From a virus (lineage: Duplodnaviria > Heunggongvirae > Uroviricota > Caudoviricetes): DNA of 4,992 nucleotides. Shown here one piece after another: positions 2,032 through 4,992 of this stretch. The number at the start of each line of letters is the position of its first letter. Position 1 is the stretch's first letter. The stretch is from the IMG/VR virus record IMGVR_UViG_2703718815_000007; one strand, 5' to 3'. The position numbers and the translations under genes were made by a program. The notes beneath the pieces were generated by a model. It searched no databases, was not told the DNA's origin, and saw only the letters and a program-made list of their open reading frames with translations.

Positions 2032-3312
2032 ATGAATACTGGATATTCTCCCGAACAAGGGCGGGGCTTCGTTCGTCCTGAAAAACAGAATCTGCAAAAT
2101 TTTGCCGAAATTATTCCGGTTATTTCCGGCCTTACTGGCGGGAGTGAAACCAATATTGTTAACGCCAGAGCGTTGCAGATGTTTGATGATAAAAAGGGAG
2201 TAAATTTAACTTACACCCCTGACGGCAATCAGAATATGAGCATTATCTCTGAGTCAGGTTTCTACAAACTAATAAAAACAAAAAGCGCCCCGTTGCCGGA
2301 GCGCCTTTGTGAACAATTAACCTACTGCGCAAAAAATGAATCTGAGCAGTGGGATTATATCAACCGTGTGGTGAAGCGCCACTATTGCCGGATAACAGGC
2401 AAAACAAAGGCGACCGCAAAAGGGTCGCCAGTGGGAACAAGGGAAAACAAAAGCATCACCAACAATGCCACATTTGCGGCTGGTGGGCAATGTGATCAGT
2501 CAGATTTGGTTCGTTCCAAGGTTTGCAACGAGAGTTTTTTCCTGCGCTCTTTAAGGAATTTCTCAAGAGCAAACGAACAAGGTGCGAATCTTTCTGATTC
2601 ATGCTCTATCTTTCTGCGCCGTCTTTTCCGTGTCGGTGATAATGTTTTGGTCAATTCTTTATCGGTCATTGTGTTGTCCTGCATAGCAATGCGCCGTAAT
2701 ACCTTACACCACGGCGCTGGTGATGGTTATTCCTGCTCTTTGGCCTTGCGACGCTGGCGGTATTCAACTTCTCGCTTTAATGCTGCTGTTACAAACTGCC
2801 CTGTACTTTCACCAGGCATTTTTACCGCCTCAACATTGTTCATAACTTCATGCGGAACCCTTGCCGCAACTGTTTGTGATTTTGCGTTTACTGCTTTTGT
2901 TGCCATGTTGTGTACCCCTTACAAAAAACAAATGCAGTATGCAGGAAAAAAAATAAGTGTTCAACACTTGACGTGTTTAACACCAGGGCTTAAATTGGTG
3001 TTCAACACCTTACTGATGCAAGGTGCAGAAACGACGAAACCCGGCAGTGCGCTAACACTAACCGGGCTTCTAACCACCAACGATAGAAAGCGTATCGAGG
3101 TAGCTATGAGAAATTATACCAGACACCCGCAAGGGCGGGACTCGTACAACCTGAATAAATACATCTGGCGTTTTATCGCCCTGAGCACGGCACAACCGCG
3201 CGTGATTACCATTGAGGCCACCAGCGAACAGGAAGCGCGTCAGCAATCTCCTGATGGCTGCGTGATGGTATTCGCTGCCCGTATTCGTCAGGGGGTACGC
3301 CATGTGCAATAA
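2032..3312 (+). CDS. uncertain 426-codon open frame, probably not a single gene; the first ~130 codons look protein-like, the middle looks like antisense read-through, the last 68 codons are the separate Icd/Kil-like ORF
   Basis: Seen: no stop in this frame from 2032 to 3312. Codons ~135-290 are Cys/Ser/Leu/Arg/Phe-rich, and this frame is wobble-aligned antisense to two minus-strand ORFs with their own RBS, promoter and terminators. The segment MSIISESGFYKLIKTKSAP resembles the Bro-N/antirepressor ISE.GLY.LI..S motif, but that is a weak by-eye resemblance. Two minus-oriented terminator hairpins lie inside it. Confidence 0.25.
   Translation: MNTGYSPEQGRGFVRPEKQNLQNFAEIIPVISGLTGGSETNIVNARALQMFDDKKGVNLTYTPDGNQNMSIISESGFYKLIKTKSAPLPERLCEQLTYCAKNESEQWDYINRVVKRHYCRITGKTKATAKGSPVGTRENKSITNNATFAAGGQCDQSDLVRSKVCNESFFLRSLRNFSRANEQGANLSDSCSIFLRRLFRVGDNVLVNSLSVIVLSCIAMRRNTLHHGAGDGYSCSLALRRWRYSTSRFNAAVTNCPVLSPGIFTASTLFITSCGTLAATVCDFAFTAFVAMLCTPYKKQMQYAGKKISVQHLTCLTPGLKLVFNTLLMQGAETTKPGSALTLTGLLTTNDRKRIEVAMRNYTRHPQGRDSYNLNKYIWRFIALSTAQPRVITIEATSEQEARQQSPDGCVMVFAARIRQGVRHVQ
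2271..2304 (-). terminator. candidate intrinsic terminator for leftward transcription (distal of two)
   Basis: GC-rich imperfect stem 2285-2292 with 2297-2304 (7 of 8 pairs), loop TTGC. On the minus strand it is followed by TTTTTGTTTTTATT (complement of 2271-2284). On the plus strand it is followed only by CTTTGTG. Confidence 0.4.
2401..2429 (-). terminator. candidate intrinsic terminator for the leftward RHH cassette (proximal)
   Basis: Perfect 7-bp stem GGCGACC (2409-2415) with GGTCGCC (2423-2429), 7-nt loop. On the minus strand it is followed by TTTGTTTT (complement of 2401-2408). It lies 66 nt beyond the stop of the 62-aa minus ORF. Confidence 0.55.
2496..2684 (-). CDS. small highly basic protein of unknown function, second gene of the leftward cassette
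   Basis: 62-aa ORF MQDNTMTDKELTKTLSPTRKRRRRKIEHESERFAPCSFALEKFLKERRKKLSLQTLERTKSD. The internal ATG at 2669 has AGGA 7 nt upstream, so the product is probably 57 aa. Protein-like K/E/R-rich composition, same strand as and just downstream of the RHH gene, followed by a terminator. No family recognised. Confidence 0.4.
   Translation of the reverse strand: MQDNTMTDKELTKTLSPTRKRRRRKIEHESERFAPCSFALEKFLKERRKKLSLQTLERTKSD
2727..2906 (-). CDS. Arc/MetJ-like ribbon-helix-helix DNA-binding protein, candidate repressor of the switch region
   Basis: 59-aa ORF, hand-translated (below the track's length cutoff): MATKAVNAKSQTVAARVPHEVMNNVEAVKMPGESTGQFVTAALKREVEYRQRRKAKEQE. Fits RHH layout: beta-strand (VAARVPHEV), helix A, G-x-S/T turn (PGESTG), helix B (QFVTAALKREVE), basic tail. 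SD AAGGGG 8 nt upstream of the ATG. Fold assignment is by eye. Confidence 0.6.
   Translation of the reverse strand: MATKAVNAKSQTVAARVPHEVMNNVEAVKMPGESTGQFVTAALKREVEYRQRRKAKEQE
2936..2964 (-). promoter_or_regulatory. candidate sigma70 promoter for the leftward RHH cassette
   Basis: On the minus strand: TTGAAC (complement of 2959-2964, inside operator site 1), 17-bp spacer, CATACT (complement of 2936-2941). This gives a leader of about 23 nt carrying the AAGGGG SD. Confidence 0.35.
2955..3009. promoter_or_regulatory. operator array: three palindromes sharing the core GTGTT-N-AACAC
   Basis: Site 1 at 2955-2969 AAGTGTT-C-AACACTT (7-bp arms); site 2 at 2973-2983 GTGTT-T-AACAC; site 3 at 2997-3009 GGTGTT-C-AACACC (6-bp arms). 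The sites overlap both candidate promoters. Confidence 0.65.
2968..2996 (+). promoter_or_regulatory. candidate sigma70 promoter for the rightward icd-like/replication operon
   Basis: TTGACG (2968-2973), 17-bp spacer, TAAATT (2991-2996). Operator site 2 sits in the spacer and site 3 at the predicted start. The 5' UTR would be about 100 nt to ATG 3106. Confidence 0.4.
3106..3312 (+). CDS. small protein, first gene of the rightward operon; possibly Icd/Kil-like (positional analogue of P4 kil)
   Basis: 68 aa: MRNYTRHPQGRDSYNLNKYIWRFIALSTAQPRVITIEATSEQEARQQSPDGCVMVFAARIRQGVRHVQ. SD GAGG 5 nt upstream. The in-frame ATG at 3016 has no SD and lies about 13 nt from the predicted start, so it is disfavoured. 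The Icd-like label is from memory of annotations in P4-like prophages and is low-certainty. Confidence 0.5.
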   Translation: MRNYTRHPQGRDSYNLNKYIWRFIALSTAQPRVITIEATSEQEARQQSPDGCVMVFAARIRQGVRHVQ

Positions 3313-3769
3313 CACCCGTCCGGACGCAGCCGCCGAAGCCATCAAAACGCTGATGCACGCGCTGATTGATATTTCTGTTATCGCAGACAAGGCGCATAAG
3401 CACGCCACCAGCGAAACAGAATATGCCGGGGCTTTCGTTCCTCACTCACTGGCTGTTATGCAATTTAGTGCTGATATGGCACTGAATGAGGCCAGGGCTA
3501 TCCTGATTGCTGATTGTGAAAATGGGGGGGGGGTTATGCGTGATGATCGTTTTAATGCCCTGAAACAGGAATTTTATGGCGCACCGGATGATACAGGCGA
3601 TGCGTTGCTGGTTGTTAATGACCTGATAAAGGCCGCATGTTTTTTAATTGGAACCGCTGAACATTCAGGAACCGGCAACGATATTCTTATTATTGCGTCG
3701 GATTATGCTGAATATGTGGCAGAGGCGCGTTACAGAAGAAAATTCCCGGAGAATGTAAGCCATGTGTGA
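3302..3769 (+). CDS. hypothetical protein (155 aa), translationally coupled to the upstream ORF; contains an in-frame G10 tract
   Basis: ATG 3302 overlaps the upstream stop (3310-3312). Strong SD AGGGGG at 3290-3295, 6 nt upstream. Protein-like composition. No family recognised. Confidence 0.65.
   Translation: MCNNTRPDAAAEAIKTLMHALIDISVIADKAHKHATSETEYAGAFVPHSLAVMQFSADMALNEARAILIADCENGGGVMRDDRFNALKQEFYGAPDDTGDALLVVNDLIKAACFLIGTAEHSGTGNDILIIASDYAEYVAEARYRRKFPENVSHV
3524..3533 (+). repeat. homopolymeric G10 tract inside the 155-aa ORF (encodes GGG)
   Basis: Ten consecutive G read directly. G9 or G11 would give a stop within about 10 codons. Confidence 0.9.
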
Positions 3770-3995
3770 TATTTACAATGACACAGTAGACCGTGCATAC
3801 CGTGCTCTTGCTTACAGTGAAAACATGCTTGAAATATTGTGCTTATGGCTTGAAACGCTTGGCGATAATGAAAGAGATAAACGCAACAGCAATATTGCGA
3901 CGGCGTTAATAACGCTTCTTGAGCCGGTAATAATGGAACTACAAGAAATAGACCTTTTGCACGACAGATATAAAGAACAACACACCGGGAAATAA
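3762..3995 (+). CDS. hypothetical protein (77 aa)
   Basis: ATG 3762 overlaps the upstream stop (3767-3769). GGAGA is 9 nt upstream. Acidic, helix-prone sequence. No family recognised. Confidence 0.55.
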   Translation: MCDIYNDTVDRAYRALAYSENMLEILCLWLETLGDNERDKRNSNIATALITLLEPVIMELQEIDLLHDRYKEQHTGK

Positions 3996-4000
3996 AAACC

Positions 4001-4300
4001 ATGAAACAGAAAATTTCTGGCTTTACTGCCAGCGGCCCCGCTCGGCCTGAAATCCGCCCCGGCGATATTTTCCGGGATAACTACGGCGGCACGGTAACGA
4101 TTAAAAGCGTGGCGGGACGGTGCGTTACTTACCGCCGTGATGGGTACGGCTATGACTGTGTGATGCCTGTTTATCAGTTCCGGCGTGATTTTTCACTGAT
4201 ACAGGCCACACCACGCAAACAGCCCACCAGCAACGCAAAGGCACGGGCAAATATTCAGAAAATGAAAAGCATGATTAACGCATTCAGGGGCAAAAAATGA
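4001..4300 (+). CDS. hypothetical protein (99 aa) with a basic C-terminal tail
   Basis: Starts 5 nt after the upstream stop; its stop overlaps the next start (ATGA at 4297-4300). Core GDIFRDNYGGTVTIKSVAGRCVTYRRDGYGYDCVMPVYQF looks like a small beta-rich domain, followed by a K/R-rich tail. No family recognised. Confidence 0.6.
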   Translation: MKQKISGFTASGPARPEIRPGDIFRDNYGGTVTIKSVAGRCVTYRRDGYGYDCVMPVYQFRRDFSLIQATPRKQPTSNAKARANIQKMKSMINAFRGKK

Positions 4301-4992
4301 AACTGGCACCGAACTTAAAAAAACAGCCACACGACAAAATGACCGAAGTCATTATTTTTGCGGGTAGTGATGCCTGGGCGCACGCGAAACAGTGGCAGGA
4401 ACAGGACGGGCGACTTGCTGGCGACAACGTGCCACCTGTATGGCTTGGAGACAGCCAGCTTGACGAACTGGCAGACCTGAAAATTATCGACGATGGTCGC
4501 TATTGTGTCCGGCTATACAAGGCAGGCCACATCAAGCCGTCAAATATTAATGCCATCGGGCAAAAACTGGCGGCGGCAGGTGTACGGGATGCGAATTATT
4601 ACCCTGAGGGAATGCACAGCCAGAAGCTGGAGAACTGGCACGACTACCTGCAACGGATCCGCGAACAGGCAGAGCGCGGGGAAATACTTACTGACGAGCA
4701 ATACAGCCAGCGAAAAACCACGCTACCAATGAGTATTGGATCTACAGGGTACGACACACAGCTTGATTATGTCGTTAAGGGCGTTATTCCGGCTAATTCA
4801 TTGTGCAGCACATACGGCGCGAGCGGTTCTTATAAATCGTTCCTCGCGTGTTCCTGGGCGTGTCATGTTGCCACGGGGCGCCACTGGGGAGGCCGCAGGG
4901 TTGCGCATGGTTCGGTGATGTATGTTGTCGGTGAAGGTGGCATTGGTGTCCCCCGCCGTATCAGGGCATGGGAAATCGTTAATGATGAACGG
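4297..4992 (+). CDS. replication protein, 5' partial (runs off window): possible Toprim-like N-terminal region fused to a RepA/AAA_25-like P-loop NTPase
   Basis: Hand-translated 232 codons with no stop to the window end. SD AGGGG 6 nt upstream. C-terminal part YVVKGVIPANSLCSTYGASGSYKSFLACSWACHVATGRHWGGRRVAHGSVMYVVGEGG matches the RepA/AAA_25 pattern (...G..GSGKSFLAL..A.AVATGR.W.GR.V..G.VLY...E). The N-terminal region has E...DDG spacing that may be Toprim-like; that part is tentative. Confidence 0.8.
   Translation, partial: MKLAPNLKKQPHDKMTEVIIFAGSDAWAHAKQWQEQDGRLAGDNVPPVWLGDSQLDELADLKIIDDGRYCVRLYKAGHIKPSNINAIGQKLAAAGVRDANYYPEGMHSQKLENWHDYLQRIREQAERGEILTDEQYSQRKTTLPMSIGSTGYDTQLDYVVKGVIPANSLCSTYGASGSYKSFLACSWACHVATGRHWGGRRVAHGSVMYVVGEGGIGVPRRIRAWEIVNDER

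Follow-up and report, generated by a model that had tools for sequence, protein, structure and literature searches.

What do the small genes that lie between the first gene of a satellite's early operon and its replicase encode? The question is raised by a stretch of 4,992 nucleotides (nt; hereafter the window) from the IMG/VR virus record IMGVR_UViG_2703718815_000007 (Duplodnaviria; Heunggongvirae; Uroviricota; Caudoviricetes), in which an earlier sequence-only reading described three translationally coupled open reading frames (ORFs) of 155, 77 and 99 amino acids (aa) at positions 3302-4300. That reading recognised no family among them and proposed, by position, that they could be derepression, anti-host or helper-hijacking factors of the kind carried by satellites as cargo. 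Judged by its gene content, the window covers the left half of a phage-inducible chromosomal island (PICI) of Escherichia, and 3302-4300 is the middle of an early (replication) operon of the EcCICFT073/OI-51 type. The reading favoured here, with a probability of roughly 60%, is a coupled PICI operon with four small genes, in which two of them (N and C) are joined by a slippery and neutral fusion, the last encodes a regulator of the RgdR family, and N, C and ORF77 (O77) are accessory cassettes.

The ORFs of 3302-4300 are genuine genes, and they stand beyond chance because of their profile matches, the constraint on their codons and their recurrence. ORF155, ORF77 and ORF99 match phrog_2512, phrog_2196 and phrog_285 of the PHROGs database from end to end (E values of 1e-30 to 1e-75), and ORF99 is additionally matched by Pfam DUF4222. 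Pooled pairwise ratios of nonsynonymous to synonymous substitution (dN/dS), taken over roughly 30-50 distinct alleles, are 0.28 for the N half of ORF155, 0.29 for its C half, 0.30 for ORF77 and 0.39 for ORF99. The 999-bp interval is matched in 1218 of 5426 complete E. coli genomes, with at least 80% of it covered in 500 of these. The coordinates and start/stop overlaps given in the sequence-only reading are all correct. The stop of an Icd-like gene (3312) overlaps the start of ORF155 (3302) by 11 nt; the stop of ORF155 (3769) and the start of ORF77 (3762) overlap by 8 nt in ATGTGTGA; a spacer of 5 nt separates the stop of ORF77 (3995) from the start of ORF99 (4001); and the stop of ORF99 (4300) overlaps the start of the replicase gene rep (4297) in an ATGA. 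G-rich motifs resembling Shine-Dalgarno (SD) sequences lie 5' of the starts, namely AGGGGG (3290-3295), a run of ten G residues (3524-3533), GGAG (3748-3751), a weak GGGA (3987-3990) and AGGGG (4286-4290). Gene order and overlaps recur in 80 IMG/VR loci, and translational coupling is kept across about 80 relatives. The coupled chain thus runs through the Icd-like gene, N, C, O77, RgdR and the replicase, and it holds four small satellite-specific genes rather than three; the ORFs previously listed are real, and their number was misjudged, as ORF155 consists of two genes fused in frame.

The N-terminal half of ORF155 is gene N (3302..3535, plus strand; about 78 codons), matched by phrog_5146 at residues 1-73, and the C-terminal half is gene C (3536..3769, plus strand; 77 aa from the ATG at 3536), matched by phrog_24341 at residues 79-154. 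Three PHROGs families are thus involved, of which 2512 covers the protein in full, 5146 its N half and 24341 its C half. The homopolymer of ten G residues (G10; 3524..3533, plus strand) sits on the junction between the stop of N and the start of C, where it encodes a Gly3 linker and occupies the position of an SD sequence for the ATG at 3536. Locus L001, which is the closest relative with an annotation, has two coding sequences (CDSs) of 80 and 77 aa here that overlap in ATGCGTGA, and the sole relevant difference at the junction is a G11 tract as against the G10 of the window. Gene N is a separate gene of 79-86 aa in relatives with G8, G9 or G11, and gene C a separate 77-aa CDS in L001 and L002. 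A tract of G8 or G11 places the stop of N inside ATGCGTGA and leaves the ATG of C unchanged, while with G9 N is extended by 9 codons in the third frame (C-terminal ...LCVMIVLMP) and stops 27 nt past the ATG of C.

Among 103 relatives, tract lengths range from G4 to G11 between invariant flanks. A first sample of 56 copies, drawn from IMG/VR and E. coli and including that of the window, comprises G4 (3), G7 (18), G8 (17), G9 (11), G10 (5) and G11 (2); a second, of 50 metagenome contigs retrieved with the flank pattern, comprises G7 (9), G8 (25), G9 (12) and G10 (1), plus three interrupted tracts. When the two are pooled (G7, 27; G8, 42; G9, 23), N and C are fused through a linker of Gly2-3 in 35%, N ends in the ATGCGTGA overlap in 43%, and the third frame (G9) accounts for 22%. 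The tract evolves much faster than the surrounding sequence. Groups of loci whose 450 flanking nt are free of mismatches have tract lengths of {7,7,7,7,8}, {11,10,9}, {7,7,9} and {8,9}, such that otherwise identical alleles differ as G7/G8, G9/G10/G11 or G7/G9. Of all G or C runs of at least 7 in 802 kb of fetched loci, 56 of 70 are this N/C site. The stability of RNA folding around the tract is not unusual (z = +0.86).

Tract lengths peak once, at G8, and lack 3-nt periodicity, so that all three frames appear to be equally tolerated. The G-run is placed 2 nt 5' of the ATG of C and could act as its SD sequence, so that C could be initiated in every state of the tract. Tethering of N to C by glycines would then be harmless, with N and C acting together, and a neutral fusion of this kind provides a Rosetta-stone hint of joint action. 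An internal contrast that supports tolerance of all frames at the N/C junction is offered by a second poly-G tract, within an alternative O77 gene of 69 aa in some relatives, which is mostly in the intact frame: this frame (G5 or G8) is found in 6 of 8 loci (L003:3517, L016:3890, L030:2405, L036:3809, L039:3480, L043:3602, L069:6566 and L080:4008), and G7 or G9 truncates the 69-aa protein. A third poly-G site, CGCGATAATTAC-G8/G10-ATATGCC, is present further 3' in two related elements (L016:8448 and L059:8905). Literature searches on homopolymers or phase variation in PICIs, or on functions of these ORFs, returned nothing relevant; as far as they show, a hypermutable poly-G tract by which N and C alternate between one fused protein and two separate ones is undescribed, and the alternation is probably neutral.

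Homopolymeric tracts in Neisseria, Haemophilus and Campylobacter form contingency loci, at which slipped-strand mispairing brings about phase variation, and the tract might likewise be a selected switch between fused, coupled and uncoupled states of N and C. The likeness lies in an uninterrupted G7-G11 tract within coding sequence that is polymorphic in length between otherwise identical alleles, as the loci with identical 450-nt flanks attest. The tract also remains uninterrupted where the flanking genes have diverged to 56-80% protein identity, and the concentration of long G/C runs at the N/C site is joined by 7 further runs at the alternative-O77 site (the eight loci there include one with G5). 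Unlike contingency loci, however, no frame of the tract abolishes a polypeptide. What changes is whether the proteins are fused or separate, and the reading frames of N and C are kept in all three frames without frame bias, which is not the pattern of ON/OFF switching. A single G8 peak without 3-nt periodicity, with both polypeptides yielded in every frame, is what neutral slippage would be expected to produce. In addition, G7 is invariant in six complete genomes of the enterohaemorrhagic E. coli (EHEC) type, and mismatch repair is functional in E. coli. Selection for such a switch therefore seems improbable, and the same low likelihood attaches to the broader proposal of selected switching at both the N/C and the alternative-O77 tracts, reversible between fused and separate or ON and OFF, in a mismatch-repair-proficient enterobacterium. 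If it were true, coupling could also let the switch retune the downstream RgdR and replicase, and thereby diversify the response of the satellite to helper phages. Far less probable still is that ORF155 arose through an error in sequencing or assembly, or through a recent homopolymer frameshift, with one or both halves decaying as pseudogenes. Homopolymers are error-prone and the closest annotated relative differs by one G, but fused proteins of 154 and 155 aa make up more than 100 database clusters from many sources, and the fused G7 form is carried by six of six EHEC-type complete genomes, several of them independently finished and four with identical flanks. Accordingly, the fusion is not erroneous, nor is it an isolated case. 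Decay is further opposed by purifying selection on both halves (dN/dS as above) and by reading frames that stay intact at every tract length. Tolerated slippage between two genes is retained as the preferred account of the junction.

N, C and ORF77 (3762..3995, plus strand; 77 aa; phrog_2196, E 1e-37) are small, acidic proteins, with isoelectric points (pI) of 5.1, 4.7 and 4.6, respectively. A low-confidence AlphaFold2 (AF2) model of ORF155, at a predicted local distance difference test (pLDDT) score of 50 and of insufficient quality for a fold search, is helical, with two long helices in N (9-37 and 39-73) arranged as a hairpin and three in C. Their database relatives, 486 in the case of ORF77, are all named 'hypothetical' and come from Escherichia or Shigella. 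None of the three has a match in Pfam, NCBIfam or PADLOC; sequence and profile searches of the PDB with ORF155, ORF77 and ORF99 gave a best E of about 1, and 50,697 phage genomes searched by tblastn contain no match to these ORFs. Similar lengths and ATGCGTGA-type junctions could suggest that N, C and O77 are paralogues, an idea that was rejected on BLASTP and on hhalign probabilities below 1%. A 9-kDa CP-933C protein from a proteomics paper was also considered and is not among these genes (406-nt upstream intergenic region).

The distribution of these genes is that of cassettes. C is missing from about 20 of 80 related loci, and ORF77 is missing or replaced in about 25-30 of 80, by its 69-aa distant homologue or by other ORFs. 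Other small cassettes occur in their stead: in L002 a gene of 121 aa separates N from C, and in O157 one of 70 aa precedes N. Which cassettes are present does not follow the class of replicase, although primases of the 707-aa type are usually accompanied by N alone. Since so many related elements lack C and ORF77 or have them replaced, these two are not read as core functions, and N, C and ORF77 together are read as exchangeable, satellite-specific accessory cassettes. Windowed dN/dS is below 1 throughout, save for the almost invariant first codons of C, where dS over the first 12 codons is 0.01 as against about 1.0 in mid-gene. About 45 nt on each side of the N/C junction (3524-3533) are nearly invariant while the gene interiors diverge, an invariance that in its innermost part follows partly from the search patterns used. 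The junction sequences GTACGCCATGTGCAATA and GTAAGCCATGTGTGATA (3295-3311 and 3755-3771 in the window) are also alike. Invariant boundaries and similar junctions fit an exchange of cassettes, and suggest that shuffling proceeds by recombination at conserved gene boundaries.

In contrast to its neighbours, ORF99 (4001..4300, plus strand; 99 aa; phrog_285) has a recognised family, and here the statement that none of the ORFs matches a known family does not hold, although it stands for N, C and ORF77. Residues 16-68 match Pfam DUF4222 (PF13973) at 85.2 bits, for a cut-off of 27, and the protein is very basic (pI 10.5); by these matches it is a member of the RgdR/DUF4222 family. RgdR, which is ECs1581 of O-island 51 (OI-51)/CP-933C in E. 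coli O157:H7 Sakai and C1493 in CFT073, is the sole characterised DUF4222 protein (PMC3378721) and is covered in a review (PMC10877973). It is a protein of 99 aa with a pI of 10.1 that activates LEE1 of the enterocyte effacement locus (LEE), and with it type III secretion, and represses motility; its DNA binding is of low affinity and non-specific (PMC3378721). Residue 20 of its RGD motif modulates both T3SS (type III secretion system) activation and DNA binding, such that the ED1a variant with C20 is inactive and a C20R substitution brings activity back (PMC3378721). The gene is 'encoded by all the analysed E. coli PICIs' (PMC6092414). ORF99 resembles RgdR in its length of 99 aa, its strong basicity and its position directly 5' of a PICI replicase. 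It shares 70% identity with the DUF4222 protein at the rgdR position of the O157:H7 OI-51-type island, with a nearly unchanged conserved core (residues 20-68), as compared with more than 77% reported for published orthologues (PMC3378721). At residues 20-22 (4058-4066) ORF99 has PGD rather than RGD, and 'RPGD' is common to many relatives. Owing to this motif and to an identity below that of the published orthologues, carry-over of the T3SS and motility activities is uncertain. The PGD allele of the window may behave differently from the RGD allele, and the host of the window may lack the LEE.

The position of ORF99 relative to the replicase is almost constant. The stop of the DUF4222 gene and the start of the replicase overlap in ATGA in 78 of 79 related loci, regardless of whether the replicase is a RepA helicase of 466-471 aa or of the primase type, with a length of about 582-605 or about 707 aa. 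In complete genomes DUF4222 also adjoins replicases of the 'DNA primase family' and DUF927 types, and the adjacency extends to a more distant lineage (P0410). An AF2 model of ORF99, built on a diversified alignment of 59 sequences, has a mean pLDDT of 80, rising above 90 at residues 20-70. It predicts a five-stranded SH3-like barrel (residues 23-68) with a short helix ahead of the last strand, followed by a basic helix (78-96), and the fold may on this model be described as a Tudor/KOW-type barrel with a basic C-terminal helix. Foldseek of the model against the PDB gave no match at E<=1e-3. Comparison with the SH3-like domains of this type, including the KOW domains of Spt5/NusG, the RID of CarD and the C-terminal Tudor domain of UvrD, is limited by an identity of about 15% and by the commonness of the fold; as ORF99 also differs in having no NGN or other partner domain, the analogy is functional only. 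A DUF4222 profile search of 1.8 billion representatives retrieved only 77 matches, nearly all of them small stand-alone proteins. Two large 'multi-repeat' matches were dismissed as Rib-repeat artefacts, and a lone protein with DUF4222 and a primase zinc ribbon looks like a frameshift fusion. The ATGA coupling to the replicase across loci and the barrel model are new here. RgdR would most likely bind nucleic acid or the transcription machinery with low specificity and be made in a fixed ratio with the replicase, and its published effects (LEE1 up, motility down) would then be side effects on the host.

A different role for RgdR is brought to mind by the satellite P4. Its protein Cnr is a small protein encoded directly 5' of the primase-helicase gene alpha, and modulates the binding of the initiator and copy number. 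The left operon of P4 (kil, eta, cI, epsilon, orf151, cnr, alpha) is likewise the early operon of a satellite: it opens with a gene of the kil type, continues with several small ORFs whose starts and stops overlap by 8 nt and has, in cnr (ORF106), a small gene directly 5' of alpha. By this analogy RgdR, and perhaps the small proteins upstream of it, would be cofactors of the replicase. The shared layout with P4, the ATGA overlap in nearly all loci, the adjacency to primase and DUF927 replicases and in the P0410 lineage, and the DNA binding of RgdR (PMC3378721) make this the main competing explanation. The two operons nonetheless have no detectable sequence relationship: Cnr is a DUF5375 protein, epsilon belongs to the 'Derepression' family and ORF151 lacks a Pfam match, and among the window proteins neither Pfam family was found and BLASTP gave no alignment of ORF99 with Cnr or of ORF155 with ORF151. 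Moreover, RgdR precedes unrelated types of replicase, which makes a specific protein-protein partnership unlikely; the shuffling of N, C and O77 bears no relation to the class of replicase; and the published phenotypes of RgdR are transcriptional and were obtained without the replicase (PMC3378721). A replication cofactor is accordingly a minority possibility, if the most substantial one, and RgdR is at most a positional analogue of Cnr.

For the upstream genes there is the proposal of the sequence-only reading, recast as inhibition of host defence or as blocking or redirection of the helper phage by N, C and O77. These proteins are small and acidic and lack matches in true phage genomes, and exchangeable cassettes between conserved junctions are the typical pattern of conflict genes. 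On the other hand, searches of PADLOC, Pfam, NCBIfam and the PDB gave no match, windowed dN/dS holds no sign of diversifying selection, and interference by E. coli PICIs is reported to map to the packaging module (Rpp; PMC6739421). This proposal is hence considered unlikely, somewhat more so than a replication cofactor. Its components fare unevenly. Derepression is not supported, as no match to the epsilon 'Derepression' family, ORF151 or Cnr of P4 was found, and no evidence was found for a hijacking role; the notion of anti-host cargo fits ORF99 only, whose family member RgdR changes both motility and type III secretion of the host (PMC3378721). Two observations had been named that would speak against the proposal, namely clear homology to known replication accessory proteins and absence of the ORFs, with no phenotype, from otherwise identical elements: no replication-accessory homology was found, whereas many related elements lack C and ORF77 or have other genes in their place. 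Under the preferred reading of N, C and O77 as accessory cassettes, they would most likely bind host or helper-phage proteins during induction of the satellite.

The satellite setting itself is borne out by the genes of the window (those for an integrase and AlpA, one that is Icd-like, the small ORFs and a helicase of the RepA type), and the relatives are PICIs. At the left end of the window lies the tyrosine integrase gene int (164-1414), followed by the AlpA gene (1791-1979; Pfam Phage_AlpA, 66 bits) and a same-strand operon with pri/rep, which is the PICI layout; AlpA is the activator in characterised PICIs (PMC6092414). The operon is headed by the Icd-like 'host cell division inhibitor' gene (3106..3312, plus strand; 68 aa), the 'kil-like gene' of the sequence-only reading, which matches NCBIfam NF033153 at 70.3 bits (cut-off 25), is annotated alike in relatives and has dN/dS of 0.18-0.46 in its frame. 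The window ends within rep (4297..4992, plus strand), of which it holds the 5' part, encoding a RepA-family helicase (Pfam AAA_25, 5e-21; phrog_2850) that is annotated 'helicase RepA family protein' in relatives. Top matches among complete E. coli genomes are 92-95% identical and lie inside islands of about 10-15 kb that continue into SSB (single-stranded DNA-binding protein), capsid/decoration/terS genes or a whole head module. These relatives occupy PICI attachment sites and include capsid-forming PICIs (cf-PICIs); L001 is about 10.5 kb with capsid, decoration and terS genes, and L002 about 15 kb with a cf-PICI-like head module. The element and its gene families are already known. The early operons of EcCICFT073 and EcCIEDL933/OI-51 share the order int, alpA, hypothetical small ORFs, rgdR and pri/rep (Fillol-Salom 2018; PMC6092414), and helper-phage induction and transfer have been demonstrated for EcCICFT073 and other PICIs (PMC6092414). 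In comparison with both, the window has a RepA-type helicase allele as its replicase, and its operon is preceded by a divergent YlcI/YnfO-family gene (2727-2906, minus strand; 59 aa), three palindromes and a candidate SymR-like antisense RNA, features that are not described in the PICI papers compared.

These palindromes, of the form GTGTT(C/T)AACAC, start at 2957, 2973 and 2998 (2957..3008; spacing of 16 and 25 nt) and are candidate operators. They bracket a sigma70-like promoter (2968-2996, plus strand) in the ylcI/icd intergenic region, and the triple occurs in 20 fetched loci, with no copies elsewhere in 1.2 Mb. By their arrangement they look like the operator set of a so far undescribed PICI repressor. 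Downstream, a candidate cis-antisense small RNA (SymR-like; minus strand, from 3105 to about 3027) is complementary to the Icd-like gene at its SD and start region. It matches the full Rfam SymR model below threshold, at 32.8 bits and E 0.002, for a gathering score of 61. A perfect extended -10 element, TGGTATAAT (the reverse complement of 3113-3121), lies 7 nt 5' of the 5' end of the candidate, and each of the 29 related haplotypes retains either TGGTATGAT or TGGTATAAT. The candidate folds into two stem-loops, of which the second, with a U-tail, has the form of a terminator and is maintained among the 29 haplotypes by wholesale compensatory replacement of its stem (GCCCGG...CCGGGU, GCCCCG...CGGGGU or GCCCUGCGAGUG...CACUUGCGGGGC). 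The layout of antisense candidate and Icd-like gene resembles type I toxin-antitoxin pairs and the c4/icd system of P1. In some related PICIs a bona fide C4 antisense RNA (70-74 bits) and isrK precede the Icd-like gene instead (L014:3198-3386 and L027:2846-3050), and the control module before the operon is therefore itself exchangeable. Given the 11-nt overlap of N with the Icd-like gene and coupling throughout, an antisense RNA that controls the first cistron could in principle lower the output of the entire chain.

Other features of the window lie outside the operon. An open frame of 426 codons (2032-3312, plus strand) begins shortly past alpA, lies antisense to ylcI and reaches into the Icd-like gene. 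Most relatives have comparably long frames, and residues 44-91 have weak Bro-N/anti-repressor matches. A single long protein of this extent was rejected, as dN/dS is 0.77 in 2908-3105, without coding signal, and the start of the Icd-like gene is therefore placed at 3106. Two strong terminator-like hairpins on the minus strand (2281-2308 and 2409-2429) lie inside this Bro-like frame and probably end a leftward ylcI transcription unit that includes a 62-aa ORF (2496-2684). Repeats containing ACAAC with 10-nt spacing are found just 3' of int (1442-1495), with inverted copies 5' of it (96-130), and among them is an inverted repeat that is perfect over 14 nt (TTGTTCCACGTTGT / ACAACGTGGAACAA); upstream of alpA there are related repeats of GACACAA (1714-1738). 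Both sets are predicted, as likely candidates, to be binding sites for the arms of Int or for AlpA.

The polymorphism between fused and split forms of N and C has a practical consequence in that the same genes are annotated inconsistently, as one CDS or as two. Three features of the operon offer experimental handles, namely the joining of N and C by a slippery G-run, the coupling to the replicase of RgdR, modelled as a Tudor/KOW-like barrel, and the control region with its candidate antisense RNA and operators. The operon is carried by about a fifth of complete E. coli genomes, including those of EHEC O157:H7, in which rgdR influences the expression of virulence genes.

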